Virus record (IMG/VR): IMGVR_UViG_3300044972_000763
Location: 1 to 61,730 of that record
Strand: one strand, 5' to 3'
Source of the DNA: a virus
DNA length: 61,730 bases
In this document: piece by piece, positions 20,516-55,498 of the stretch
Layout: each line of letters starts with the position of its first letter
How positions within the stretch are numbered: position 1 is the first letter of the stretch
Notes under the pieces: generated by a model
Told to the model about the DNA's origin: nothing
What the model saw: only the letters and a program-made list of their open reading frames with translations
Databases searched by the model: none
Made by a program: the position numbers and the translations under genes

Positions 20516-22993
20516 ATGGACGCTGCTGCTATTGCTCAGATATTGCCAAAGTTATCTTCGATGCCGATTGCGGATCAGGTTGAGTTGTTGAAGCTGTTGG
20601 AGGGTTTGGAGGACGCTAAGGAGAAGGAGAAGGCAAAGAGTAAGTTCCTTCCTTTTGTGAAGCGTATGTGGCCTGGGTTTATTGAGGGGCCTCACCACAA
20701 GATCATGGCTGATACATTTGATCGGGTGATTAGTGGGGAGTGTAAGCGGGTTATTATTAATATGGCGCCCAGGCACCGTCTTAATATCAACACTCCAATT
20801 CCGACTGCCGAGGGCTGGAAGGCGGTAGATTCGGTTCAAGTAGGGGATTATGTTTTTGCGCCAGATGGAAGTCCAGTTCTTGTAACTGGAAAATCTGACC
20901 AATATGAAGAAGACCTTTATGAAGTAGAAACTTCTGATGGGCAGATTATTGAATGTGATGCTGAACACCTTTGGACGGTTAGGTTTGGTTCTGGGCGCCC
21001 GTATGAAACTCTCTCTACGGCAGAAATTCTTAAAAAACTAGAAACTGAATCCTGGCGCAAAACGGGCAATCTTCCCATGCTGCCCCCCCAAAGTGCCGCT
21101 CAATATCCCTATAGGCCACTTCCAATTGATCCGTATGTTTTGGGTGTTTGGCTGGGGGATGGAAGTTCTTGGGATGGGTCAATTGGATGCTCGTTTAAAG
21201 ATATGGCCCAAATGCGGTCCCAGATTGAGGCTTGCGGCTATCAAACAACGCACAACCCAAAATTCCAAAAGTTTAATATCCTTGGGTTGATGGGGCAGGT
21301 TAAGGCCGCTGGGCTGCTTCGCAATAAACAGATACCAGAAGAGTATCTTTGTTCTTCTATTGAGCAAAGGATGGCTTTGCTGCAAGGGCTAATTGACACT
21401 GATGGTAGCGTTGGTTCGGATGGGAAAGTTACCTTTCATCAAACGAATTTAGATTTAACAAATCAAGTTCTTTGTTTAATTCATTCACTTGGGATTAAAG
21501 CGCGCATTACTAAGCGGCAAACTTTTTATGGTGAAAAGGAAAGTGAGCCATCTTTTAGGGTTATGTTTAAGGCTGCTAATGCAGCCAGAATCCCCAGGAA
21601 AGCGGTGAACTGCCGCCCTCTTAACGGGAACTGGGGTAGGTCAATTGATATTCGTAAAACAGACCGGCGCGGCCAAGTGCGCTGTCTCGAAGTGGCAAAT
21701 GAAGATGGGTTGTTTATGGCTGGCCGTGGCTGGGTTGTGACTCACAACACTAAGTCAGAGTTTGCTTCATATTTATTGCCTGCATTTTTTATGGGCAGGT
21801 ATCCTGAGAAGAAGATTATTCAGGCTACCCATACGGCTGAGTTGGCGGTTGATTTTGGTCGTAAGGTTAGAAACTTAATTAAGGACGAAGGTTTTAGTGA
21901 AGTGTTCCCTGGGGTCGGGTTGCGGGCTGACTCGACTGCATCTGGCCGGTGGAACACTACATCGAATGGCTCCTATTTTGCCGTAGGTGTTGGCGGCGCT
22001 ATCGCTGGTAAGGGCGCCGATCTATTCATCATTGATGATCCCCATAGCGAGCAGGAGGCTATTCAGGCTGCTCATGACCCTAAAGTATTTGAGAAGGTGT
22101 ATGAGTGGTATTCCTCTGGCCCCAGGCAGAGGCTACAGCCTAATGCGGCCATTGTGGTAGTTATGACTCGCTGGGGTGTTGGCGACCTTACAGGGCGCCT
22201 CGTACAAGCCTCTATTGACCGTGGGGATGGGGACCAGTGGGAGGTGATTGAGTTACCTGCTATTCTCCCATCCGGTGAACCTATGTGGCCTGCGTTCTGG
22301 TCAAAACCCGCCCTAGAGGCTTTGAAGGCCGAACTGCCCGCTTCTAAGTGGAACGCTCAGTATCAACAGCAACCCACCTCAGAAGAAGGGGCTATTCTCA
22401 AACGAGAATGGTGGCGCCGTTGGGATAAGAAGCGTTTGCCTAATTGTGAATACATTATCATCGCATCGGATACCGCCTTTACCAAGAACAACCGGAGCGA
22501 CTATTCGGCCTTTACCGTTTGGGGGGTGTTCGAGAATGAGAATGAGGGCGGGTCTAACATTATCATGCTGGACGCCTGGAAGGATCGTTTGGAGTTCCCT
22601 GATCTGAAGGCTAAGGCCATTGAGATATATAAAGAATGGGAGCCCGATACCTTCCTTATTGAAGCCAAGGCGTCCGGGTTGCCTTTGATTCATGAATTAA
22701 GGAAGGCCGGGGTGATGGTTTCTGAGTTCACTCCGACTAGAGCATCCGGGGATAAGGTGATGCGCGCCAATTCTATCTCTGACATATTTGCATCGGGGGT
22801 TGTTTGGGCGCCTACTGGTAATTGGGCGAATGAAGTGATTGAAGAATGTGCGTCGTTTCCTGTTGGGGCGCATGATGACTATGTAGATACGGTCATTATG
22901 GCCCTTATGAGGTACAGGCAGGGTGGTTTATTGAGGCTTCCAAGTGATGATGAGGACGATTATAGTCCACCCGCTAGGGCCGAATACTATTAA
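20516..22993 (+). CDS. terL: terminase large subunit interrupted by an intein (exteins about 20516..20776 and 21749..22993, roughly 501 aa spliced)
   Basis: N-extein ...KRVIINMAPRH and C-extein TKSEFASYLLP rebuild a PRHxKS-type Walker A. DLFIIDDPH is a Walker B-like motif. The C-terminal nuclease-like region contains SDTAF ... GAHDDYVD. Confidence 0.85.
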   Translation: MDAAAIAQILPKLSSMPIADQVELLKLLEGLEDAKEKEKAKSKFLPFVKRMWPGFIEGPHHKIMADTFDRVISGECKRVIINMAPRHRLNINTPIPTAEGWKAVDSVQVGDYVFAPDGSPVLVTGKSDQYEEDLYEVETSDGQIIECDAEHLWTVRFGSGRPYETLSTAEILKKLETESWRKTGNLPMLPPQSAAQYPYRPLPIDPYVLGVWLGDGSSWDGSIGCSFKDMAQMRSQIEACGYQTTHNPKFQKFNILGLMGQVKAAGLLRNKQIPEEYLCSSIEQRMALLQGLIDTDGSVGSDGKVTFHQTNLDLTNQVLCLIHSLGIKARITKRQTFYGEKESEPSFRVMFKAANAARIPRKAVNCRPLNGNWGRSIDIRKTDRRGQVRCLEVANEDGLFMAGRGWVVTHNTKSEFASYLLPAFFMGRYPEKKIIQATHTAELAVDFGRKVRNLIKDEGFSEVFPGVGLRADSTASGRWNTTSNGSYFAVGVGGAIAGKGADLFIIDDPHSEQEAIQAAHDPKVFEKVYEWYSSGPRQRLQPNAAIVVVMTRWGVGDLTGRLVQASIDRGDGDQWEVIELPAILPSGEPMWPAFWSKPALEALKAELPASKWNAQYQQQPTSEEGAILKREWWRRWDKKRLPNCEYIIIASDTAFTKNNRSDYSAFTVWGVFENENEGGSNIIMLDAWKDRLEFPDLKAKAIEIYKEWEPDTFLIEAKASGLPLIHELRKAGVMVSEFTPTRASGDKVMRANSISDIFASGVVWAPTGNWANEVIEECASFPVGAHDDYVDTVIMALMRYRQGGLLRLPSDDEDDYSPPARAEYY
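20777..21748 (+). mobile_element. intein (~324 aa) with a double-motif LAGLIDADG homing endonuclease; class-3-like WCT signature
   Basis: Block A-like LNINTPIPTAEGW, block B DAEHLW, LAGLIDADG motifs LGVWLGDGSS and LLQGLIDTDGSV, blocks F/G VRCLEVANEDGLFMAGRGWVVTHN followed by +1 Thr. The N-terminal boundary is uncertain by 1-2 residues. Confidence 0.75.
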
Positions 22994-25727: not shown

Positions 25728-26138
25728 ATGGGTGTAGTAATGGAATTGGACTATAAGAAGATTGACCTGAATAGTTTGAAATTGGATTCAGGTATTGAAG
25801 GTAAGCCTAATGTATTGCCTGATCCTAAAGGCTACAAGATGCTTATTATTTTGCCAGAGTTTGAGGAAAAGACTTCTGGCGGTATTCTCCTTCCGGGGCA
25901 GGCGCTTGAGCGTGAACAAACCGCTTCTGTGGTTGGGTTTGTGCTGAAGATGGGCGACCTTTGCTATAAGGACGAGAATAAGTTTCCCACGGGGCCTTGG
26001 TGCCAGGAAGGGGATTGGGTTGTATTTCGCGCCTATTCCGGCTCCCGCATTAAGATTCATGGCCGGGAGTTTCGTCTAATCAATGACGATACTGTAGAGG
26101 CTGTGGTTGATGATCCGAGGGGGATTACCCGCGCATGA
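25728..26138 (+). CDS. GroES/Cpn10-like co-chaperonin fold protein
   Basis: MLIILPEFEEKTSGGILLPGQALEREQTASVVGFVLKMG...EGDWVVFRAYSGSRIKIHGREFRLINDDTVEAVV parallels the GroES pattern (ekT.gGI.lP ... G.V.avG ... GD.V.f). Confidence 0.55.
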   Translation: MGVVMELDYKKIDLNSLKLDSGIEGKPNVLPDPKGYKMLIILPEFEEKTSGGILLPGQALEREQTASVVGFVLKMGDLCYKDENKFPTGPWCQEGDWVVFRAYSGSRIKIHGREFRLINDDTVEAVVDDPRGITRA

Positions 26139-29178: not shown

Positions 29179-30942
29179 ATGGCAAACCAAAACTCATGGA
29201 AAGCTTCGGCTGCAAGTCGCAGAAAAATTGCCGAATTAAAATTTTGGGAATCTGTATCAAGTCTTTATGGGGATTCCTTGGATTTTACTGATTTCCAATA
29301 TCAGGGGGCTACTACGTCCTGTTTTGTGTCCTGCATTAAGCATGGACCGTTCAAAACAAAACCAACGTACCTTGTGAATGGATATGGCTGCCCATCATGC
29401 GGAAGAGAAAAAATCAAAGAAGCGGCGATGGGCAAGCGCCTTGGGTTTGATGGTTTTGTTTCTAAAGCTATGGAAATACACGGTAATTTATATTCATATC
29501 CAGAACAAGAATATGTGACAAATAAAGATAAGGTAAAAATTATCTGCTCGAAGCATGGAGAGTTTTGGCAGAAGCCCAACTCTCACCTTTCTGGCAAGGG
29601 CTGTTATGAGTGCGCTAATGATTCAAAAAGAGCCAGAAATTCGGCTGTAAGCGCGCTTACAAAAAGTGGATTATTGGATAGGTTGATTGAGGCAAACCCA
29701 TCTTGGGAATATGATCTATCTTCTTTTACGGGGATGGCAAAAAATCTAAGAGCCATCTGCCCCGAGCATGGGGAATTTTATTCAACCCCAAATAATATGC
29801 TTCGCAATAGTGGCTGCCCAGGATGCGGCGAAAGAAAAATGCTAGCAGCATCCGCCGCCAGAAAGTTAACAACAGAACGGTGGATCGAAAGGGCTAAAGC
29901 TGTTCATGGCGGGAAATACCTATATTGTGATACCGTTTATGATACAAATGGGAAAATGGCGGTTCAATGCCCCAAGCATGGAGAGTTTCTTACAACTTCA
30001 GACCACGTGTATCAGGCAACTGGTTGCCCTAGGTGTTCTATACATTTATCTAAGGCCGAGGACGAAATTGCAAATTTATTAAAGATTTATACTGAGGTTG
30101 ACCAGCGTAATAGGTCATTGATTAAACCGCTCGAATTAGATATATTTTTACCCAAGCATGGTGCGGCTATAGAGTACTGCGGGGATTATTGGCACAGTCA
30201 TGGAGACCCCGACTCGGAAAAGGCGGGAATGGCCAAGCATCACAAGAAGTACAATTTGTGCGCCCAAATGGGAATTAGGCTTATCACTATATTTGAAAGC
30301 GAGTGGATGGGTCGAAGGGCGGCGATTAAGCGCATTTTGTTAAATTGCATAGGGAAAACAAGGGGCAGATTGATGGCCCGCAAATGTAGTGTCGGGCGCC
30401 CCACAAGCTCAGAAGCTAGAGATTTTTTTGAATTATACCACCCACAGGGAGGCAATGGCAACGGTGAGCATTACGCCCTTTATCATAATGCGAAGATAGT
30501 CGCCTGCATGAGGTTCACGCTTGGCGCCAATGACCGTGGCGTAGGCGCTGAGAGGTCTTGGACGCTATCTAGGTATGCTACTAGGGTTAATGTGGTCGGA
30601 GGCGCCTCTAGGCTTTTTAGTGCGTTTAGAGAAGAAAATGACCCTGATTTTGTAAAGTCGTTTTCAGACAATAGGTATTTTGAAGGAGAAATGTATAAAC
30701 GACTCGGCTTTGAGTTAGATGCTGAATTGCCGCCAGATTACATGGTTTGGAGTCATAAGGTTGGTTTGAAGCCAAAGTCTTATTATCAAAGAAAGTTTAT
30801 TCCCCAAAGGCTTTTGGACCATGGGATTCAAGACCCCTTTGAACCAAGCACAGACAATAGGACTGAGGCAGAAATGACATATCTAATGAAGTGTAGGAGA
30901 ATATATGATTGTGGCAAGAAAAGATGGGTTTGGCGCAAATAG
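29179..30942 (+). CDS. free-standing homing-endonuclease-like protein (587 aa)
   Basis: Four C-x-(K/E)HG-x-F ... GCPxC zinc-ribbon-like modules. A PD-(D/E)XK/Vsr-like core (SKAEDEI...ELDIFLPKHGAAIEYCGDYWHS). A C-terminal ARKC...FFELYHPQG...VVGGASRLF...FSDNRYFEGEMYKRLGF domain. Visibly AT-richer than the flanking genes. Confidence 0.6.
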   Translation: MANQNSWKASAASRRKIAELKFWESVSSLYGDSLDFTDFQYQGATTSCFVSCIKHGPFKTKPTYLVNGYGCPSCGREKIKEAAMGKRLGFDGFVSKAMEIHGNLYSYPEQEYVTNKDKVKIICSKHGEFWQKPNSHLSGKGCYECANDSKRARNSAVSALTKSGLLDRLIEANPSWEYDLSSFTGMAKNLRAICPEHGEFYSTPNNMLRNSGCPGCGERKMLAASAARKLTTERWIERAKAVHGGKYLYCDTVYDTNGKMAVQCPKHGEFLTTSDHVYQATGCPRCSIHLSKAEDEIANLLKIYTEVDQRNRSLIKPLELDIFLPKHGAAIEYCGDYWHSHGDPDSEKAGMAKHHKKYNLCAQMGIRLITIFESEWMGRRAAIKRILLNCIGKTRGRLMARKCSVGRPTSSEARDFFELYHPQGGNGNGEHYALYHNAKIVACMRFTLGANDRGVGAERSWTLSRYATRVNVVGGASRLFSAFREENDPDFVKSFSDNRYFEGEMYKRLGFELDAELPPDYMVWSHKVGLKPKSYYQRKFIPQRLLDHGIQDPFEPSTDNRTEAEMTYLMKCRRIYDCGKKRWVWRK

Positions 30943-45668: not shown

Positions 45669-46078
45669 ATGTAAGTATTGTTCCAGTTGAATACATCAAT
45701 GATGTTTGGGATACAGTAAAGGTTATTCTTAAACCAGCCGTTGAAGTCACTAATGGCCGGTTTATGCTTTATGATATTTACTCATTTGCTCAAATGGGTA
45801 GGTATCAGATGTGGATAGCCTTTGATGATGATAAGCAAATTCATGGTTGCGAAGTAACCACTGTTACAGATTACCCGTCTAAAAGGGTTTTAACTTCGCT
45901 TTTTACTGGTGGTGATGATATTCGTTCTTGGCGTAATCAGATGATTGATGTTATTACTAGATTTGCCAAGGATCAGGATTGTGAAGCTATTGAGGGTCAT
46001 GGCCGGGAAGGCTGGATTAAGCTGCTAGAGCCTTATGGTGTAAAGCGTGGCTTGACGATGTTTGAGAAGGATATTTGA
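45665..46078 (+). CDS. hypothetical virion-module protein (137 aa)
   Basis: Track ORF. Confidence 0.5.
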   Translation: MNVSIVPVEYINDVWDTVKVILKPAVEVTNGRFMLYDIYSFAQMGRYQMWIAFDDDKQIHGCEVTTVTDYPSKRVLTSLFTGGDDIRSWRNQMIDVITRFAKDQDCEAIEGHGREGWIKLLEPYGVKRGLTMFEKDI

Positions 46079-46079
46079 T

Positions 46080-47051
46080 ATGGGTGGTGGTGGCGGCGGT
46101 CAACCTACGCAAAGCACAACCAATACTTCCAATCTTCCAGAGTATGCCCAGCCATATTTTGAGCGGATGATGGGCCGGGCAGAGGCGGAATCAAACCAGC
46201 CTTATGTTTCATACGGCGGTCAGCGGATTGCTGGTTTCACTCCTGATACACAAGCTGGATTTCAGCAAACCCGTAATGTCCAGGGCGCCGAGAATGTTCA
46301 AGCTGGTTCTGCTTTGGTTGGGGCGGCTGGCTTGCAAGGATTAGGGGCTTCTGGCTATCAGGCTAATCCCATTCAGCAATCGTCCTTTGGTTCGCAACAG
46401 GCCGAACAATATATGTCGCCCTACATGCAACAGGTGATTGACCGGCAAAAATCGTCTGCCGTTCAAGATTATCAAGAGGGTCAGGCGGGGCGGGATACCC
46501 AGGCAATCAAGGCCGGTGCTTTTGGTGGATACCGGCAGGGTATTCAAGAGGGTGTAGCACAACGGGGCCTTGGTCGGCAGCTTTCAGACATTGAAGGCGC
46601 TGGTCGTCAAAAGGCCTTTGAACAGGCTCAAGGTCAGTTTGAACGTGATCGGGCTGCATCTGTCCAAGCGCAGGGTTTGACCGAACAACAGCGTCTTGCC
46701 GGGGAGCAGTTTGGCTTGTCTGGTGCTGGCCTTAGTATGCAGGCCGGTTCTGCCTTGGGGCAACTTGGGGCCACCGAACAGGGTCTTGGGTTGCAACGGG
46801 CGCAGGCGTTGCAGCAGCAGGGGACGGCGCAACAGCAGCAAGAGCAACGTGGTATTGATATGGGCTATCAGGATTTCTTGGATCAACGTGATTACGGACG
46901 TACTAACATTGATTTTCTTTCGCGCATTTTGCGAGGGACGCCTGTTACCCCGAATACGGTCCAGAACACTTATGCTAACCCCAATCCCTTTACGCAAGTT
47001 GCTGGCTTAGGTTTGGCTGGCTTGGGCGCTTATAATCAGTATAACCGGTGA
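46080..47051 (+). CDS. Gln/Gly-rich internal virion protein candidate (323 aa)
   Basis: ATG 46080 (MGGGGGGQPTQ...) inside track ORF 46062..47051. Confidence 0.5.
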   Translation: MGGGGGGQPTQSTTNTSNLPEYAQPYFERMMGRAEAESNQPYVSYGGQRIAGFTPDTQAGFQQTRNVQGAENVQAGSALVGAAGLQGLGASGYQANPIQQSSFGSQQAEQYMSPYMQQVIDRQKSSAVQDYQEGQAGRDTQAIKAGAFGGYRQGIQEGVAQRGLGRQLSDIEGAGRQKAFEQAQGQFERDRAASVQAQGLTEQQRLAGEQFGLSGAGLSMQAGSALGQLGATEQGLGLQRAQALQQQGTAQQQQEQRGIDMGYQDFLDQRDYGRTNIDFLSRILRGTPVTPNTVQNTYANPNPFTQVAGLGLAGLGAYNQYNR

Positions 47052-47058
47052 GGTTGAT

Positions 47059-48576
47059 ATGAACATTCTTCAGGTTCAAGATGCACTAAAGAACGCATCT
47101 GACATGCAGCTTTCCGGTGAGTTGCAGAATCCTACTGGTATGGCCCCGTCTTACTTGGTGCTATCAGAAGTGAAACGGCGCCAGCAAATGAGGCAGGGCG
47201 CGATGGCTAGTCCAGCGCCACAGTCTAGCATGGCTGAGGAAGCTGCAAGCCAAGCGCAGCCTGAGTATTACCCTGAAGAACAGCCGCAAGAGGAAGAGGC
47301 TGGTATTGAGGCTTTCAGGGAAGGTGGTGTTGTACGGATGGCAGAGGGTGGACTTTCTGCGGTTCCATTGGAAGTTCTTGAGTCTGAGTATAGGCGCAGG
47401 AATCCAGTTCCGCCAGAACCTTCAAGGCCTATTGAGTTGCCTAGGTGGTTGCGTGGTGGTCGTCGTGAGGAGCCGCCGCCTGGGACTCAAAGATGGACGG
47501 AACCTCCGCAATTCCCGCCCGGAACTGTTTTGCCATTTGGTACACCCAGAAATGCCATTCCGGCCCAAACCGCGACTAGAGATGATTTGGAGGCTGAAAT
47601 TTCTCGCCGCCGCGCTGGTTCTATCGGTTCTTACATGGAAGCCGAAACCGCAGGTTTGAGAAATTTTAATCCGCCGCTCCCTTCGGCTAGTGAGCCTACT
47701 GCCCCGACTGAAACAGCCGGTGGTCTATATGGTCCTCCCGCCCCTCCTGCTGGTGCTGCTGCCCCTCCTGCTGGTGCCCCTAGGGCTGGCGCCTCTGAAT
47801 CCCGTGGTGGTGGCGCCATGCCATCTGGCGGGGGTATGCCTTCTGGTCAACCTTCCGGTCAAAGCACAGACCCCACCATACAAGCCTTGTATGACCGTCT
47901 AAGGGCTACTGGACAGAGCCGGGAAGATTACCGGAAGGATGCTGTTAATACCGGCTTGATGCAGGCTGGCCTTGCTATGATGGCGAGCAAAGACCCTAAC
48001 GCCCTAGCCAATATTGGGCAGGGTGGCTTGCGTGGTCTTGAGTCTTATACCCAGGAAATGCGCCAAGGCCGTCAGGGTGAGCGTCAGGGTATTCAGGATG
48101 AAATCACTATCCGTCGCGCTCAGACTGAGGAAGCCTATCGTCGTGGCATTATCACCAATCAGGAACGTCAACTTAGGTTGGCTGAATTGCGGGTTGGTGA
48201 GGCTGCGGGGGATCGTTCTGAGCGCCGTGCAGACAGGCAAATCCAACTTGAGGAAGCTAATAGGTTGCGTTCTGAGGGTCAGATGGGCCGGTTAATTCCA
48301 GCTATGGAAGGCAGAATAACTAGGTTAAATGAGCAAATTGGGGCATTTTCCATGGCGAGAAGTACCCCAGAAGGGCAGACCCCCAGGACTCGTGATCCGT
48401 CCATGCAGGGCGCTTATGATGCTTTGGTTCGTGAGCGCGCTCAGTTGCAAAACCGCGTTAGAAACGCGCAGGATTTCTTAATTGAGCGCGGTGGTGTTGA
48501 TCTATCTACATTGGATAGGCCAGCCCCCACACAGGGCGCCCCTGGACAACCCCCTGGCCCTGTAGTTCGTCTATGA
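47059..48576 (+). CDS. internal virion protein candidate (505 aa), Pro/Ala/Gly-rich centre
   Basis: Track ORF directly upstream of the 2090-aa gene. Confidence 0.5.
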   Translation: MNILQVQDALKNASDMQLSGELQNPTGMAPSYLVLSEVKRRQQMRQGAMASPAPQSSMAEEAASQAQPEYYPEEQPQEEEAGIEAFREGGVVRMAEGGLSAVPLEVLESEYRRRNPVPPEPSRPIELPRWLRGGRREEPPPGTQRWTEPPQFPPGTVLPFGTPRNAIPAQTATRDDLEAEISRRRAGSIGSYMEAETAGLRNFNPPLPSASEPTAPTETAGGLYGPPAPPAGAAAPPAGAPRAGASESRGGGAMPSGGGMPSGQPSGQSTDPTIQALYDRLRATGQSREDYRKDAVNTGLMQAGLAMMASKDPNALANIGQGGLRGLESYTQEMRQGRQGERQGIQDEITIRRAQTEEAYRRGIITNQERQLRLAELRVGEAAGDRSERRADRQIQLEEANRLRSEGQMGRLIPAMEGRITRLNEQIGAFSMARSTPEGQTPRTRDPSMQGAYDALVRERAQLQNRVRNAQDFLIERGGVDLSTLDRPAPTQGAPGQPPGPVVRL

Positions 48577-48591
48577 TAAAATGAGAATTAA

Positions 48592-51500
48592 ATGAGCCGC
48601 TATATCCAACTGCCTGACAATTCGTATGTAGAAATCCCCGAAGGCATGAGCGATGATGAAGCTCGCCAGAAGGTGTTTCTTGATCCCCGCTTTCGTCCGA
48701 TTATTGAACAAGCTATCTCGCAACAATCTAGTATCATCCCTGACTTGGGTGGTAGCGTTGTAAGGGGTGTTGGTTCTATCCCTACGGCAGTAGGAAGGCT
48801 TACCGACCTTGTTCCGGGGATGCAGGATAACATTGTATCCCGTGGTCTAACATCTGCCGGTGAATATCTAAGCCAGCGCGGGACTGCGATGATGAGTCCT
48901 GGCGGGCAGATGCAACAGCGTTTGTTCCAAGCCGTGATGGACGAGGCTGAAAACCAGGGCCTTGTGGATCAGGCCAAGGTTGCCTTGCGGGAAGCTATTT
49001 CCAATCCCCGGATGCTTGCCAATATCACGGCAGAAAGCATCCCTTCATTGGTTGCTTCCTTTGGTGGTGGCTTGGCCGTGCGTGGCGCGGCGGCTGTTGG
49101 CTCCCGTCTAGCGGGCAGGCAACTTGGGGCAGAGGGCGCGCGTAGGGCCGCTGTTGCTGGCGCTATCGGGACTGAATCATTGCTTGAGGGTGGTGGTTCT
49201 GCCGACGATGTGTATAAGGAAATCAAGGGTCTTAAAGAGGAAGAACTACAGAAAAGCCCTGAATATCAGGAGTTGCTTCGTGGTGGCTTGAAACCAGAGG
49301 ATGCTAGGGAATCTTTGGCCCGTAGTGCTGCTAGGCAGGCCGGGCTTCAGACTGCGGCTATCTCAGGGACTATCGGGGCTGCATTGCCCGGTGTGGAAAC
49401 AATGCCGTTTGCTAGGGCTTCTACTGCCGGTAGGGGGCGTAGGGCTTTAACGGGCGCTGGTACTGAATTGGGGCAAGAGGGTGGTCAAGAAGGTGGCGCT
49501 GCGCTTTCAGAGAACATTGCTAGGCAACGTGCGGAGATTGAGCGTGAACTGACTGCTGGCGTTGGTTCCCGTGCTGCGCTTGGTGCGGTGGTTGGTGGTA
49601 TTACAGGTGGTGCATTTGGTGGTTTAAGGTCGTCTGCCCCTGAAGTTTACCGGACTGAAGATGCTGAATTGCGTAGCGCCTTGCAGGCTGGGCAGCCTGA
49701 GTTTCAACGGGCGGCGATTGTAGAGCGCGGCCTTAATATCCCTGCTGAAGATTTCCTTTCCCGTCCAGCGGAAGAACAAGAGAAGCTACTGGCCGAGGCC
49801 CAAAAGGCATTGCAGCCCACGCCAACTATTCGCCAAGTCAGCCCTGAAGATTTTGCCGCTGCCGCCCAAGGGTTGCGCTCCGGTGAGAATCAGGAAGCGT
49901 CTATTGGAACCTTAGCGTCCCAATACATTGCCGATCAGATTAAGGATAAGCCATCCTACACTGTTTCTGTTCCATCGCTTCAAGCTTATCTTTCTGGTAT
50001 TGCGGGCAGGCAGATACCTACCGGCGAAGTTAAGGCTGCGCTTGATAGGCAAATTCAGTCACCCGAGAATCAATCTGGTGAGTTTGGGTTTTCCCTTGCC
50101 AAAGGTGAATCCAAAAAGGGCAAGATTAAGAAGTATGTTGCCAACAATCTTTCGGCGCAGAACCAAGAGGTTGTAAGTGAGCGTGTTGCTGCCGTTGAAG
50201 AAGGGCGCGTTGAAACCCCGATGGGCGCCCCGGCTGCTGCCCCTGAAGGCCCTGGCTTTGCTCTACCGCCCGATGTAAAGCAGAACCTTGAAGATTTGCG
50301 TAAGGGCGTAAAGCCACAACAACAATCCTTGGTGCAATTTCTTAGGAAGGCCGGTGGCTTAAACAACACTGGTTATATGGCCGGTGAGGTTTCCAATATC
50401 CTTGGTTCAAACCGTGCGCTTCCTGGCCTTATTAACAACCAAGCCAGGACGCCAATTAAGAACCAGAATGGTAAGGTGGTTGGTTACAAGGGTGGCCTTA
50501 CACTAGACCGGGCGCGGGAGAAGCTAGTTGAAGAAGGTTTCCTTCCCGAAGATGCAGACATTAACGATATGCTTAATGCTATCCGAGATGAATTATCCGG
50601 TGGTGGCGCCAACTTTGGTTTGACTGAGGATTTTGAAGGTCAGGAACGGCAACGTGCGGCGCAGCAACTAGAGCGCGCCCTAGATGAAGCCGGTGTGACT
50701 GCCCGTGATAGTGATGAAGATATTGCCCGCGTCCTTGGGTTCGAGGTTCAATCCCGTCCTGCGACGGAAGAAGATGTTGAAGCCCTAGACCGTGAACGGT
50801 TTGGTAATGTGCCACCTAAGCCGCTAGGACCGGCTGCTGAATACTCCGCCCGTGGTCAGGCAGGGCAAGCCCCTCAAACCGAACAGACTGCCCCTAAAGC
50901 CTTTGACTACATGGCGGTTATCAATGACCGGCTGAATAAGATCAGGGCCAAGGGCAAGCAGGGTGAAGCCATTGCTGCCGCCATTGAGAAGGATTTGAGA
51001 AGCGGTAAGTATCAACCGGAACAGCTTTATGCCGCCTTCAAGGCTGGCGAAGTGATGGCTGGTATTCTGCCTTCCGGCGCTAACCATGAGATTAGGTTTG
51101 TAGAGCGTATCCTGAAGGGTGATATAGAGGCCCAAGGTCGCCGGTTGCCGCCCGAGAATACCGCGTCAGCGGGAATTATTGAGATTTCCCTATCCGATTC
51201 AGCATTGAGTATGGCGCAAGAAACAGCAGCCCATGAAGCCTTCCACGTTCTTCAAGACTACTACGGCCAATATGATTCAGCCTTCAAGAAACTAATGGGT
51301 CAGTCCTTCAAGGACGGCATGACGCTGGATCAAGTTGATTCCACTATCAAGCGAAAACTACAGACAATCCGTATGCCGGGGTCTAAGCAATCTTATTGGG
51401 ATTTCCTTAGTTCTAGTTTGCCGGGTAAGATTGATAGCGCCCGTGAGGCCGAGGCTTATGTCTTTGGTTCATTGCATGATGCCGCCAAGCGCGGGATTCC

Positions 51501-54500
51501 AATGACCGGATTGAAGCCTGCCTTCACGCGGTTTGTGAATATGCTGACCAAGTTCACTCGGCGCATGGGTAATGCCCTGCGTGGTGATGGGTTTAATAGC
51601 CCTGATGATGTGTTTGGTAGGGTTGTAGAGGGTGATGCTGGTAGGTTTGCTGGTGAGGCCGCGCCTGAGTTTAGGGGTGGTGAGGAGTTTAGTAGCCGCC
51701 TTCCTGCCACCATTGAAGTAGATGGAGTATCCCGCCCTACCACCAATAGTGAAGGGCGCCCTATTCACCCAACAGAAGAAGGGGTGCGTAACTTCTGGCG
51801 GTGGTTTGGTGATAGTAAGGTGGTTGATGCGGGTGGGAAGCCGCTGGTGGTTTATCATGGGACCGATAAGAGGTTCACTAAGGTCAATCTTAATAAGGGA
51901 ACGCAGGGACTTTTTTGGTTCACGTCCGATAGGGCCGCGATTGAGGCGGGCGATGTTGGCGCTGCCGGTAGGGGCGTTATCATGGATTTATACGCCAAGA
52001 TTGAAAGTCCCGCAAACTGGAAACAATACGACCAGCTATCACTTGGAGAATTTAGGTCGCGTGGACTTGATGGGGCCATTCTTCCCGAATCTGATGGCAC
52101 TATGACTGGATTTATTATTGACCGGCCCAATCAAATAAAATCAGCCGTCAACAACACGGGCGCCTTTTCCCCCGCTGATGCCCGCATTCAATACAGCGCC
52201 CGCACCTTACCCAAGGTAAGTTCCACATACCAAAGCGCCATTGACAAGGTAACAGGGACATACGGACAGGAGCCGGACAGCCTATTCCGTAGGGCGCTGG
52301 ATGGCCTTACAGGGGCAAGGGCCAAATACACAATGCTGTATGGTGGCGATAAGCCCCAGCGGGTTAAGGCCACTGATAGCCTTGTCATGTCCAGCGTCAA
52401 CCAATTCCATGCAGGCCATTTGGCTGACCAACTCCTGAAATCCAAGGGCAGGCCGGATGCGGCTGTTATTGGCCGGTCTTGGGAGTCTGCCAACAATAAT
52501 GATGCCCGTATTGCCTATATGATGAACGGTGGTGGGTATAGGCTAGACAAAACCCGTGGGGTTTTGGTGCGTGATCCCAAGGTGAAATCCATTAAGGATA
52601 TGTTCGCCAATAAGGTTCCCACTGATGAGGCCGGGCAAAAGCGGTTCCAAACCTACGCTGTGGCGAACCTAGAGCGTGATCTTCGTAAGCGGGGTAAGAA
52701 AGGCTTTCTTAACCTGACTGATACTGAGATTGCTTCTGTTATCCAAGAGTCTGAACGGTCCTTCCCGCAATGGAAGGAAGTGATTAAGGACTTGAATAAC
52801 TGGAACAATAGCCTGTTGCAGTTGTTGGTGGATGCGGGGAACATTGACCAAGCCACCAAAGATAAACTGATGCAGGTGTTCTACACCCCATTGTATCGCA
52901 AGATGGAAGATGATGCTTACCATAATGCTGATATGGTGGTGGGGCCAGCAACGGCGGGGACGCTCAAGAATCCTAGTGACGCATTAAAGCGTCGTGAGGG
53001 TGGGGAAGAACCCATTGGTGATCTATTCGAGAACATTGTTCGGAATGCAGATGCCATTGTGAAGTCTGCCCTGAAGAATGTTGCCATGGAGAACACCGCT
53101 AAGGGGCTTGAAATTGCGGGGCTGGCCGAGAAGGTTCCCGCTAAACTTGATGGCGCCAAGAATATCATGACCCTTCGCCGGGATGGTAAGGACGTTCATT
53201 ACCGGATTGATGATCCGTTGATGATGATTGCCATTAGCACGGCGCCCATGCAGATTCAGAACGGGTTTTACAAGGCAATGGCTTCTATCTCTGGATTTCT
53301 CAGGGATATGATTACCCTTGCGCCCCCCTTTATGTTGGCAAACCTATGGCGCGGCAAGATTGTGTCTTATGTCCAAGAGGGCGTCCCCTTGTGGCGCTCG
53401 ACATGGCTTGGCCTTAAAGATGCTTTGAAGCAAACCTCCTCTATGACCTCCATCGGGGACGTGACGGGCTTTGGTGGCTACACTTGGGGGCAAGGTAGTC
53501 AGGATTTGGTTGGCGAATTGAAGCGCCAAGTGCGCCTTGCTGACGGCACGGCTTCTATGCTGGATCGGGCCAAGGGTATTGTCCAGGGCTTGCGGCATGT
53601 GGGTGAAGCAACTGAATTTGCTGAACGTGTTAAGGTGGTGGACCATCTTATCTCCAAGGGTATGAACCCTGATGATGCCGCTTTCCAAGGATACCTTCTG
53701 GCGCCCTTCTCTCGACGCGGTATGGGGACCGGCTTCTTTGGTTCCATTGCTTCATTCTTGGCGCCGATTGTCCCGTTCTTGAACGCCAAAATCCAGGGTA
53801 CATACCGCCTATTGGAGAATGAAAAGAACCTACCGAAGCATAAGTTTATTATGCAAATGATGGCGCGCGGTTCGGTTGTGACTATGTTTAGTATGGCCCT
53901 TGCTGCTCTGGCATCCGATGATGAGCGGTGGGAAAACGAGCCGGTTGAACGGAAGATGCTGTATGACATTTTCTATGTAGGCGATAAAACCATTCTTCTC
54001 CCAAGAGCATTTGAAGTGGGGACTTGGTTTGGTGCTATTCCCGTGATGCTTTTTGATGCAGCCCGCAAGGAGCATGGTGGTGATCTTGGGAAGGCATTTG
54101 CCTTTGCGATAACCAATACCCTTGGGTTTAGTCCAATCCCGGCCTCGATTGCCCCGCTAATTACAGTTGCAACAAACTATGATTTCTTCATGGGTCGGGA
54201 GTTAGAAAGCGCGGGCATGAGGTCGCGCCCTGCCAGCGAGAGAAGCCAAGAGGACACATCTAGGGTTGCGGAAGGTGTGGCATACGCCATCAATAATAGC
54301 CTTGGTGAGTTGCCTCGCGGCATGAGAACTGAGTTGTCTCCCATTCAAGTCCAGGCGCTTCTACAGGGCTACCTAGGGACCGCTGGCACTATGATACTGA
54401 GTGCTGTAGATGGGTTCCTTGGCTGGTCTGGTGTGACCCCTGGCAAGCCCGCTGGCCCGCTTGGTGATCCTAATAGCCCGCTTGGTATTGCCACCACCCT

Positions 54501-54864
54501 TTCAGGTATGCGGCGGTTTGTGAAAGGCGATGAGGAAAAGGTTAGCCGGTTTGTTGGTGACTTCTATGATCTAAAGCGTGAAGTGACGCAATGGACCACA
54601 GCCATGAATGACGCCCGGCTTGCCGGGGATATGGCTAGGGCTAACGAGATTGCTTCTGAAAGGTCTGACTTGTTTAGCCTAAAGAAGCAGGTTGATAAAG
54701 CATCCCGTGATGTTGGCGAGATTAGCCGTAGGATGAGGGCTATTCAGAACAATCCTAATATGGACCCACAGGAAAAGGCCGATGCCCTGGTCCCGCTAAG
54801 GCAACGGCGCAATGAAATCACGGGTACGGTTATGCAGCAGGCTGTTGACCGGGGAGTGCGCTAA
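48592..54864 (+). CDS. 2090-aa polyvalent virion protein (zincin-like HExxH region + ART-like domain + C-terminal membrane-segment region)
   Basis: AAHEAFHVL at aa 879-887 (HExxH at 881-885, nt 51232-51246). VVYHGT at aa ~1086-1091 (His 1089, nt 51856). FWFTSD, then PNQIKSAVNNTGAF. Hydrophobic segments FFGSIASFLAPIVPFL, GSVVTMFSMALAALA and GTWFGAIPVMLF lie in the last 400 aa. Confidence 0.75.
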   Translation: MSRYIQLPDNSYVEIPEGMSDDEARQKVFLDPRFRPIIEQAISQQSSIIPDLGGSVVRGVGSIPTAVGRLTDLVPGMQDNIVSRGLTSAGEYLSQRGTAMMSPGGQMQQRLFQAVMDEAENQGLVDQAKVALREAISNPRMLANITAESIPSLVASFGGGLAVRGAAAVGSRLAGRQLGAEGARRAAVAGAIGTESLLEGGGSADDVYKEIKGLKEEELQKSPEYQELLRGGLKPEDARESLARSAARQAGLQTAAISGTIGAALPGVETMPFARASTAGRGRRALTGAGTELGQEGGQEGGAALSENIARQRAEIERELTAGVGSRAALGAVVGGITGGAFGGLRSSAPEVYRTEDAELRSALQAGQPEFQRAAIVERGLNIPAEDFLSRPAEEQEKLLAEAQKALQPTPTIRQVSPEDFAAAAQGLRSGENQEASIGTLASQYIADQIKDKPSYTVSVPSLQAYLSGIAGRQIPTGEVKAALDRQIQSPENQSGEFGFSLAKGESKKGKIKKYVANNLSAQNQEVVSERVAAVEEGRVETPMGAPAAAPEGPGFALPPDVKQNLEDLRKGVKPQQQSLVQFLRKAGGLNNTGYMAGEVSNILGSNRALPGLINNQARTPIKNQNGKVVGYKGGLTLDRAREKLVEEGFLPEDADINDMLNAIRDELSGGGANFGLTEDFEGQERQRAAQQLERALDEAGVTARDSDEDIARVLGFEVQSRPATEEDVEALDRERFGNVPPKPLGPAAEYSARGQAGQAPQTEQTAPKAFDYMAVINDRLNKIRAKGKQGEAIAAAIEKDLRSGKYQPEQLYAAFKAGEVMAGILPSGANHEIRFVERILKGDIEAQGRRLPPENTASAGIIEISLSDSALSMAQETAAHEAFHVLQDYYGQYDSAFKKLMGQSFKDGMTLDQVDSTIKRKLQTIRMPGSKQSYWDFLSSSLPGKIDSAREAEAYVFGSLHDAAKRGIPMTGLKPAFTRFVNMLTKFTRRMGNALRGDGFNSPDDVFGRVVEGDAGRFAGEAAPEFRGGEEFSSRLPATIEVDGVSRPTTNSEGRPIHPTEEGVRNFWRWFGDSKVVDAGGKPLVVYHGTDKRFTKVNLNKGTQGLFWFTSDRAAIEAGDVGAAGRGVIMDLYAKIESPANWKQYDQLSLGEFRSRGLDGAILPESDGTMTGFIIDRPNQIKSAVNNTGAFSPADARIQYSARTLPKVSSTYQSAIDKVTGTYGQEPDSLFRRALDGLTGARAKYTMLYGGDKPQRVKATDSLVMSSVNQFHAGHLADQLLKSKGRPDAAVIGRSWESANNNDARIAYMMNGGGYRLDKTRGVLVRDPKVKSIKDMFANKVPTDEAGQKRFQTYAVANLERDLRKRGKKGFLNLTDTEIASVIQESERSFPQWKEVIKDLNNWNNSLLQLLVDAGNIDQATKDKLMQVFYTPLYRKMEDDAYHNADMVVGPATAGTLKNPSDALKRREGGEEPIGDLFENIVRNADAIVKSALKNVAMENTAKGLEIAGLAEKVPAKLDGAKNIMTLRRDGKDVHYRIDDPLMMIAISTAPMQIQNGFYKAMASISGFLRDMITLAPPFMLANLWRGKIVSYVQEGVPLWRSTWLGLKDALKQTSSMTSIGDVTGFGGYTWGQGSQDLVGELKRQVRLADGTASMLDRAKGIVQGLRHVGEATEFAERVKVVDHLISKGMNPDDAAFQGYLLAPFSRRGMGTGFFGSIASFLAPIVPFLNAKIQGTYRLLENEKNLPKHKFIMQMMARGSVVTMFSMALAALASDDERWENEPVERKMLYDIFYVGDKTILLPRAFEVGTWFGAIPVMLFDAARKEHGGDLGKAFAFAITNTLGFSPIPASIAPLITVATNYDFFMGRELESAGMRSRPASERSQEDTSRVAEGVAYAINNSLGELPRGMRTELSPIQVQALLQGYLGTAGTMILSAVDGFLGWSGVTPGKPAGPLGDPNSPLGIATTLSGMRRFVKGDEEKVSRFVGDFYDLKREVTQWTTAMNDARLAGDMARANEIASERSDLFSLKKQVDKASRDVGEISRRMRAIQNNPNMDPQEKADALVPLRQRRNEITGTVMQQAVDRGVR

Positions 54865-55498
54865 GCGCCTCCCAAGCGGCTACAGTATCTGGCAATTCAT
54901 TCTTCAAGATAGCATAGCATTTATCCGCCACCTCGATATGCTCAGGTTGTGTCCCGTTACCGCGCCTTACATCGCAGTAATGCAGCCATGAGCGAATATC
55001 ACCACTCACATACATACGGGTTGTGGTTAGCCCTTCCGGCAGAATAGACCGCGCCACTTCCTTAGCGATGCCGTATCCAAGGGCAGCGGTATAGATAACG
55101 TCTGCCTTCATTTTCATTTTGGCTTGGGCTTCATCCCACCATTTCAAGATTTCTGGATCATCGCAGGGATTGGACTTCTGCCGATTCTTTGGGTCCTGCA
55201 TCCTAGCCGGGCGATTGGGCGCTGCTGGCAAGGTGCTAGTAATCATATATCTTTGACTAAACTCCTGAATTTGCAGGCTTTTATGCCTAATAATCTGCCT
55301 GCTAATGTCCCGTTCTGTGATGATTTCCAGGCACATATTAGCCATAGTGAACGGGGACCAATGCTTATGCTTGATGAGATAGGCAATCAGCGAGGACGCA
55401 TCATCATTTGGCTTTGCGTTTACATTGCTGACACGGGCGATGTAGCCAATCATCTGATCGGCATTGGGTGTTACCCAAACCAGATTCACTTCAGACAT
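54830..55498 (-). CDS. thyX: flavin-dependent thymidylate synthase ThyX
   Basis: RHKSLQIQEFSQRY is the ThyX RHR-x7-S motif with an R-to-K change. HWSPFTMANMCLEI lies upstream of it. Confidence 0.8.
   Translation of the reverse strand: MSEVNLVWVTPNADQMIGYIARVSNVNAKPNDDASSLIAYLIKHKHWSPFTMANMCLEIITERDISRQIIRHKSLQIQEFSQRYMITSTLPAAPNRPARMQDPKNRQKSNPCDDPEILKWWDEAQAKMKMKADVIYTAALGYGIAKEVARSILPEGLTTTRMYVSGDIRSWLHYCDVRRGNGTQPEHIEVADKCYAILKNELPDTVAAWEALSALPGQQPAA

Follow-up and report, generated by a model that had tools for sequence, protein, structure and literature searches.

Phage-type polyvalent proteins, described by Iyer, Burroughs, Anand, de Souza and Aravind in 2017 (PMC5512222), are predicted to be the first strike of a phage on host defences, and almost none has been studied. 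The N-terminal domain (NTD) of N4 gp50, the virion RNA polymerase (vRNAP), is a predicted membrane-spanning domain on which injection depends. It inserts into nanodiscs and has been proposed to form an inner-membrane complex with gp51 (PMC13434306). In the podovirus PTXU04, gp25 is fitness-essential (a 'Fit' gene) and toxic on expression (PMC11879866). Gp47 of phi24B is abundant in virions by proteomics and absent from the cryo-electron microscopy map, and the phi24B authors propose that it is a capsid-packaged ejection protein (bioRxiv 10.64898/2026.04.10.717836). Here we analysed a 2090-aa open reading frame (ORF) in the virus record IMGVR_UViG_3300044972_000763 of IMG/VR, taken over its full 61,730 nt (the window), which looks like a ~62-kb phage genome.

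By its domain content and position, the 2090-aa product is a phage-type polyvalent protein. At least two unrelated effector-type domains are joined in one polypeptide, which holds an ADP-ribosyltransferase (ART) domain of the ART-PolyVal family, an HExxH module and an LPD38 domain, and the gene lies in the late, virion-gene context of the class. The initial annotation had named the polyvalent class, and Pfam now places both ART-PolyVal and LPD38 above their thresholds. We consider it likely that this giant protein is packed into the capsid of a podovirus and ejected through the tail with the DNA, and that it combines a conserved chassis with exchangeable enzymatic cargo. The chassis would probably comprise an N4-type N-module and an LPD38-containing C-module of ~800 aa, and the cargo the HExxH module and the ART. 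Its features, with the basis of each, are as follows.

48592..54864, + strand: whole ORF, 2090 aa, phage-type polyvalent or ejection protein (full-length homologues).
48592..49715, + strand: Gly/Ala-rich N-module, aa 1-375 (core, aa ~158-450, homologous to N4 vRNAP gp50 NTD aa 255-600).
49716..50213, + strand: cassette A, aa 376-541, a hypervariable linker region of low complexity (exchanged in relatives).
50215..50859, + strand: conserved segment, aa 542-756, ending in motif 1, E750-Y-S-A-R754, nt 50842-50853 (conserved in relatives).
50860..51699, + strand: zincin-like HExxH module at aa 757-1030, followed by junction motif 2, F1033-S-S-R1036 (residue conservation, AlphaFold 2 (AF2) model).
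51232-51246, + strand: H881-E882-x-x-H885, with E952 at 51445-51447.
51700..52203, + strand: cassette B, ART-PolyVal, aa 1037-1204, ending in motif 3, Y1201-S-A-R1204 (Pfam PF18760, DNA breakpoints).
51856-51858, 51991-51993 and 52069-52071, + strand: codons of the ART residues H1089, Y1134 and D1160.
52204..54861, + strand: C-module, aa 1205-2090, mostly helical, conserved core ~1305-2080 (LPD38, profile matches).
53857-53913, + strand: conserved hydrophobic helix, aa 1756-1774 (hydropathy).
53920-54411, + strand: LPD38, aa 1777-1940 (Pfam PF18857).

Terminal modules shared with virion proteins

A Gly/Ala-rich N terminus of ~400 aa had been pointed out from the letters alone, and the bias is real: Gly and Ala make up 27.4% of aa 1-405 and 36.5% of aa 140-350, compared with 21.5% of the whole protein. 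Homology to N4 gp50 indicates that this region is more than low-complexity sequence. A single-sequence phmmer search of the PDB aligned the N-module with gp50 aa 267-517 (E 7e-8) and a family profile aligned it with aa 255-600 (E 8.5e-19), while a local hidden Markov model (HMM) gave E 8e-22 and hhalign a probability of 98%, with 33% identity over 152 columns. The alignment takes in specific motifs, for example SPeYQ..l..G..PE.A. Among PHROGs, with matches to phrog_2206 and the 'DarB-like' phrog_10089, the region occurs in vRNAP, 'DarB-like' and large 'endolysin' families, and in many distant homologues it is placed at the extreme N terminus. The likeness to N4 stops short of transcription, with none of the four vRNAP Pfam domains of gp50 that make up its single-subunit RNA polymerase found in the 2090-aa protein. 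Gene order is similar as well: in N4 (gp52-gp51-gp50) the giant gene comes last, directly after the ejection proteins, and the giant genes of PTXU04 and phi24B also occupy the last place in the late operon.

At the other end, a search for large-polyvalent-protein-associated domains, as the initial annotation had recommended, returned LPD38 (PF18857) with E 2.8e-26 and 93 bits against a cut-off of 27. LPD38 is listed as a phage-only domain (PMC5512222). In all 46 of the 46 homologues that have a C-module, it sits at the extreme C terminus, preceded by methylases, helicases, ARTs, Zeta or RadC domains. The C-module profile matched PTXU04 gp25 with E 1e-200 and phi24B gp47 with E 2e-87, and from these two homologues we infer that the module may serve in encapsidation, in conduit formation or in both. 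Its AF2 model is mostly helical (predicted local distance difference test, pLDDT, 69). Several C-terminal hydrophobic helices had been anticipated; one, aa 1756-1774, is hydrophobic across the family (average 1.46 for the 19-residue Kyte-Doolittle mean, KD19) and is the sole helix of that kind, the other segments being moderate, with KD19 at most 1.52.

Together, an N-module homologous to the N4 vRNAP injection domain and a C-module homologous to phi24B gp47 support, indirectly, a virion protein that would be co-injected with the DNA. Since the PTXU04 homologue is essential (PMC11879866), the scaffold is probably part of the core machinery of ejection and more than an accessory effector. We also considered whether the whole N4 chassis, N and C parts alike, is common to both proteins, and rejected this idea because hhalign of the C-module against the N4 C-terminal domain (CTD) was negative; by HMM and hhalign, neither the HExxH module nor the C-module showed a detectable relation to N4 CTD-C1 or CTD-C2.

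Predicted enzymatic domains

The ART assignment of the initial annotation was borne out by Pfam: PF18760, a family related to Tox-ART-HYD2, covers aa 1079-1190 with 50.4 bits in the whole protein and 58.9 bits in the isolated segment, against a cut-off of 31.2. The ART-PolyVal family is defined by a His in strand 1, a Tyr in strand 2 and an Asp in strand 5 (PMC5512222); we assigned the corresponding columns to these strands by inference from that description and not from a structure. KPLVVYHGT puts the His at 1089. In an alignment of 22 further ART domains from homologues, H1089 is conserved in 21, Y1134 in 18 and D1160 in all 22, and all strongly conserved residues are present in the protein studied here (YHGT with H1089, then Y1134, G-x-D-G with D1160, and Q1181-I-K-S-A..N..G), so the domain looks catalytically intact. 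The ART nature of the ART-PolyVal family as a whole is itself a computational assignment.

The sequence AAHEAFHVLQDYY at aa 879-891 had been taken for a zincin-type HExxH site. A word-index protein search with the HExxH segment returned a single fragment and was replaced by an exhaustive profile search, which found the module in ~100 clusters of giant proteins. The residues expected to serve as metal ligands and general base (H881, E882, H885 and E952) show 100% conservation, each of them, across 81 near-full-length, diverse copies of the module. In its AF2 model (pLDDT 72, predicted template modelling score, pTM, 0.69), a beta-sheet is followed by a long helix that carries HExxH (model 116-138) and by a later helix with E952 (194-210), an order that fits the described zincin arrangement, in which a sheet precedes the HExxH helix and the Glu lies on a later helix. 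Among distant members of the module family, sub-threshold matches to the 'putative zinc dependent peptidase' DUF5700 recurred, the highest scoring 21.2 bits against a cut-off of 25. The absolute HExxH...E conservation and the predicted topology are the reason for our label of metallopeptidase-like, and the module is very probably a zincin-type metal-dependent hydrolase, with its activity predicted. The location and the residues of the proposed site stood, whereas its membership of the Pfam family MPTase-PolyVal did not; the module appears to be a zincin clade outside current library models. A relationship to N4 CTD-C1 was considered and discarded, HMM and hhalign comparison giving a 20-column match around HExxH only, at 0.9% probability.

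Two further observations concern this module. In phi24B gp47 (L006 29149-37572), an HExxH...E region (aa 1297-1399) with a weak match to the module profile lies between Pfam LPD5 and LPD1; its Glu helix falls inside LPD1, and LPD5, HExxH and LPD1 may thus form one unrecognised zincin domain. The C-terminal ~90 residues of the module profile (positions 214-309 of profile A2; aa ~970-1033, window ~51500-51690) read MTGLKPAFTRFVN.LTKF.RRMGNALRGDGF.SPDDVFGRV. This segment is repeated at least twice in otherwise different proteins of 4000-5800 aa (P0156, P0166, P0170, P0173, P0177 and P0184) and may be a separate small repeat domain. The segment that precedes the module, aa 542-756, is well conserved in the clade and had no match in Pfam, in the PDB (aa 552-756) or in NCBIfam, and the NCBIfam search of the whole 2090-aa protein gave no result.

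Cassette exchange among relatives

Eleven close relatives, 50-93% identical, have a common scaffold and differ sharply in two segments, cassettes A and B. For cassette A, DNA homology to the relatives L003 and L005 ends at 49715 and restarts at 50214. The corresponding cassette of P0001 contains, at aa ~523-580, a duplicated copy of an N-module motif (YQEIKNLEEKELQKNPEYQKLLRNGLKPEDARESLARSAA), pointing to a duplication or a recombination event inside the gene.

Cassette B, the ART slot, exists in seven allelic states: three ART alleles, a GNAT, two unassigned domains and an empty form. P0001 has the identical ART; P0004 and P0011 share a second ART allele and P0007 has a third, the breakpoint falling just after YHGT. 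A ~100-aa domain in P0002 and P0003 matched the Pfam-annotated Acetyltransf_7 region of P0051 (E 4.5e-11) and is, by transitivity of this match, assigned as a GNAT. P0006 and P0009 carry the two domains that received no assignment, and the slot is empty in P0005, P0008 and P0010, which keep the rest of the protein. At the DNA level, the breakpoints (window 51692|52195), between flanks that are 84-88% identical, are found within the codons of a repeated S-(S/A)-R (AGTAGCCGC and AGCGCCCGC). The ART thus sits in a recombination-prone slot, with exchange seen in both protein and DNA.

A short motif at module boundaries

The 2090-aa protein contains three copies of a short motif where 0.15 would be expected. 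Two of them, E-E-F-S-S-R and Q-Y-S-A-R, flank cassette B and the third, E-Y-S-A-R, precedes the HExxH module; all three adjoin low-pLDDT linker residues in the AF2 models. Across 159 large proteins of the family, [FY]S[AS]R was found 91 times against 16.5 expected, with the consensus (Q/E)-[FY]-S-[AS]-R, polar flanks and a domain-sized spacing of copies. Its copies are concentrated where HExxH and ART modules end. It occurs 0.34 times per 1000 aa in proteins that have the HExxH module and 0.013 times in relatives that have none, and it is absent from N4 gp50, PTXU04 gp25 and phi24B gp47. The idea that the enrichment is a by-product of the ART C-terminal end was rejected, as ART ends hold only 11 of the 91 instances.

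The near-confinement of the motif to proteins with the HExxH module suggests that it may be a self-cleavage site. Autoprocessing has been discussed for polyvalent proteins in general terms, with no site named and linkers not mentioned (PMC5512222). A more specific version, in which the motif is the self-cleavage site of this HExxH zincin clade and the giant protein a 'plug-and-play' delivery polyprotein, is speculative, and we hold it to be unlikely. In it, the N4-type injection module and an LPD38 module for packaging or ejection would carry an internal slot, and whichever effector (an ART allele, the GNAT or an unassigned domain) had recombined into the slot between two motif copies would be cut out automatically and set free in the host after ejection. 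If this version were true, it would give the proposal of Iyer et al. a concrete site and a concrete protease, and it would explain how effectors are swapped without re-evolving delivery.

Proposed mechanism and alternative explanations

In the scheme that we favour, the giant protein would be made late and then packaged. At infection it would exit after, or along with, the upstream ejection proteins, and the Gly/Ala-rich N-module, possibly together with the hydrophobic helix at aa 1756-1774, would engage the inner membrane. In the cytoplasm, the ART would modify a host target with NAD+ early in infection, and the HExxH module may free the modules by cleaving the chain at its (Q/E)-[FY]-S-[AS]-R linkers.

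Several results weigh against parts of this scheme. No relative of known mechanism emerged for the C-module from PDB sequences, from Foldseek or from hhalign against the N4 CTD: its profile matched no PDB sequence, and Foldseek against the PDB returned scattered helical membrane transporters at insignificant scores (best E 0.62). No strong transmembrane segment was found, the maximum KD19 being 1.52. PTXU04 gp25 and phi24B gp47 have no clearly detectable N-module, showing that the two halves of the chassis are not always paired. For the HExxH module, neither MPTase-PolyVal nor any other Pfam peptidase model matched at E<=1, the family profile matched no PDB sequence, and Foldseek searches of the model gave no zincin at E<=0.5 in the PDB (best E 0.54) and just another polyvalent protein plus insignificant SprT-like hits in BFVD. 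As a calibration, the HExxH domain of N4 gp50 itself is likewise missed by Pfam, which makes the Pfam negative weak evidence. The ART family profile detected no solved relative among PDB sequences, and to our knowledge no member of ART-PolyVal has been assayed. Finally, the co-occurrence of the motif with the HExxH module (Fisher p 3.5e-6, close clade excluded) comes from a test that ignores shared ancestry.

This last point bears on an explanation of the motif to which we give a little under an even chance, namely that it is not a cleavage site. It would be either a structural cap at module ends or a recombination footprint inherited within one subfamily, in which short repeated codons aid in-frame cassette exchange and any processing is left to a prohead or host protease. 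The DNA breakpoints are indeed located in the S-[S/A]-R repeat codons given above, exactly one copy of the motif is left in the empty alleles, and the strict motif is missing in 60 of 96 HExxH-module proteins outside the close clade. However, the peptide is preserved in proteins of at most 50% identity and Q/E is enriched at position -1, which argues that selection acts on the peptide and not on the DNA. Homologous recombination would have very little to work with in an imperfect repeat of 9 nt, and no prohead protease is identifiable. The protein might also be primarily a structural ejectosome, either a conduit across the envelope or a complex in the inner membrane, on the model of T7 gp16 or of N4 gp50-NTD/gp51, in which the HExxH module acts on the cell wall (on peptidoglycan or periplasmic proteins) with neither self-processing nor cytoplasmic targets and the ART is a dispensable add-on. 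Even on a laboratory host PTXU04 requires its homologue, P0005, P0008 and P0010 retain the rest of the protein with an empty ART slot, the conserved parts are the N- and C-modules, and a cell-wall role has been proposed for gp47 by the phi24B authors (bioRxiv 10.64898/2026.04.10.717836). Such a purely structural role would leave the near-restriction of the boundary motif to HExxH-module proteins unexplained, and the protein showed no similarity to known peptidoglycan peptidase families or to T7 gp16. We judge it possible but on the improbable side, and it is compatible with, rather than exclusive of, the delivery of enzymatic cargo on a conserved chassis.

Other alternatives concern the ART and the timing of action. 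Instead of host proteins, the ART could act on nucleic acid or on NAD+, for example by ADP-ribosylating DNA or RNA or by depleting or altering NAD-derived defence signals, or it could be a catalytically dead structural spacer. The ART superfamily includes DNA- and RNA-modifying enzymes as well as NADases (PMC9503650), and Y1134 is conserved in 18 of 22 family domains, not in all. Against this, the family has been grouped with protein-modifying clades (Iyer et al., PMC5512222), and there is little or no variation in H1089, D1160 and the QIKSA..N.G motif, which speaks against a dead domain; we regard this set of possibilities as quite unlikely. It is very improbable, in our view, that the product is a late cytoplasmic enzyme that is never packaged and acts in assembly or lysis and not on entry. 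A position at the end of the late operon would allow for such an enzyme, but the homology of the protein to two virion proteins (to the N4 gp50 NTD and, through the C-module, to phi24B gp47) and the terminal gene position shared by N4, phi24B and PTXU04 favour the co-injected giant protein.

Gene, neighbourhood and further observations

The ORF runs from an ATG at 48592 to a stop codon that ends at 54864, precisely as first annotated. The start is fixed by the N terminus, MSRYIQLPDNSYVE..., which is kept in relatives, and the reading frame is preserved over the full length, beyond chance, in close and distant homologues. A minus-strand gene (54830-55498) overlaps the ORF tail-to-tail, and the ORF therefore closes the plus-strand late operon, in keeping with its description as the last late gene. 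Cysteine is entirely missing from the 2090-aa protein.

The genes upstream on the same strand include those for the terminase, the portal, the major head protein, the adaptor, the tail fibre and an ejection protein. Two of the upstream neighbours are as follows.

46062..47051, + strand: 329-aa gene, phrog_4287 'DNA ejection protein' (E 2e-18).
47059..48576, + strand: 505-aa gene directly upstream, candidate ejection protein by position (N4 order gp52-gp51-gp50).

Three ejection-type proteins had been proposed to precede the giant gene. The product of 46062-47051 is the sole upstream neighbour for which the proposal was upheld (phrog_4287), and no ejection match was found for the others: the 505-aa product had no match in PHROG, Pfam or the PDB, the 428-, 137- and 505-aa neighbours had no informative match, and the upstream genes showed no similarity to PDB sequences or to N4 gp51 and gp52. 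No prohead protease, sought as an alternative processing enzyme, was recognisable.

The window also encodes a primase-helicase and an endolysin; its adaptor is an adaptor-like protein, and its terminase contains a LAGLIDADG insert. No near-identical DNA turned up in a megablast search of GenBank phages. Collinear metagenomic relatives of 55-62 kb have an SU10-type adaptor (PF24175), which points to a phage of the short-tailed type.

Several genes of the window and its relatives have features of their own. The large terminase (825 aa, window 20516-22993, + strand) contains a LAGLIDADG/Hom_end insert at aa ~272-341 by Pfam, a probable intein. A gene for a GroES-like co-chaperonin of 136 aa (25728-26138, + strand; phrog_3188, E 8e-16) lies between those of the portal and the head, and one for an HNH/homing endonuclease of 587 aa (29179-30942, + strand; phrog_559, E 1e-114) directly 3' of the major head gene. 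Immediately past the giant gene lies the gene for ThyX (PF02511), which in L005 (17296-18993, - strand) is split by an intein and an HNH element and which is uninterrupted in L003 (16711-17361) and L004 (16104-16760); L003 and L005 have an extra VWA/DUF1194 gene near ThyX.

Significance

The analysis adds to the polyvalent assignment an N4-type injection module, a tie to two studied LPD38 proteins, an effector slot with seven states and a candidate processing motif. The 2090-aa protein bridges two tractable systems, N4 vRNAP injection and the LPD38 proteins of phi24B and PTXU04. Its relatives offer a natural experiment, near-isogenic phages that differ only in the effector in the slot, and with this variation one can directly test what the effectors do, how they affect host range and which rules govern protein delivery. 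The tie between the motif and the HExxH module is a precise, falsifiable prediction on the processing of giant proteins and, if true, phage particles built on this design could carry enzymes of choice into bacteria.

Comparison with known systems

The 2090-aa protein resembles T7 gp16 and the podovirus ejectosome in that it is, probably, an ejection protein of a short-tailed phage, the largest of its set and encoded behind smaller ones. The initial annotation had likened its C-terminal part to gp16-type proteins; no such similarity was found by PHROG, PDB sequence or Foldseek searches, leaving a functional analogy. A second analogy is with the CdiA and Rhs polymorphic toxins, in which a conserved junction motif precedes a variable toxin domain and, in Rhs, is also a site of autoproteolysis. 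There too, a conserved carrier bears a short peptide motif that marks recombination-swapped enzymatic cargo. The sequences and delivery routes are unrelated, however, and the variable module is internal here and C-terminal in the toxins. T4 Alt is a capsid-packaged, injected ART that modifies host proteins at the onset of infection, and the concept of a capsid-delivered ART that enters with the DNA would be shared, if the 2090-aa protein is ejected as we propose. Alt differs in belonging to the R-S-E (Alt/VIP2) clade, in being a small single-domain protein and in its packaging route, whereas the ART here is of the H-Y-D type and is embedded in a 2090-aa carrier.

Among the proteins with a related C-module, phi24B gp47 has LPD5, LPD1 and MuF_C as its middle domains and PTXU04 gp25 has no such middle domains; both are without a clear N4-type N-module and without [FY]SAR punctuation. 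N4 gp50 shares the homologous N-terminal injection or membrane module and is a giant ejected protein, as we propose for the 2090-aa protein, encoded last after gp52 and gp51. An HExxH domain has also been described in the C-terminal half of gp50 (PMC13434306). The 2090-aa protein differs from it in having no RNA polymerase domain and in being unrelated to CTD-C1 and CTD-C2 by HMM and hhalign. Pfam MPTase-PolyVal does not cover its HExxH module, and in its overall plan it resembles the described polyvalent proteins, as a giant multidomain late product with a C-terminal LPD38 module, an ART-PolyVal domain and an HExxH module, encoded last in the structural operon.

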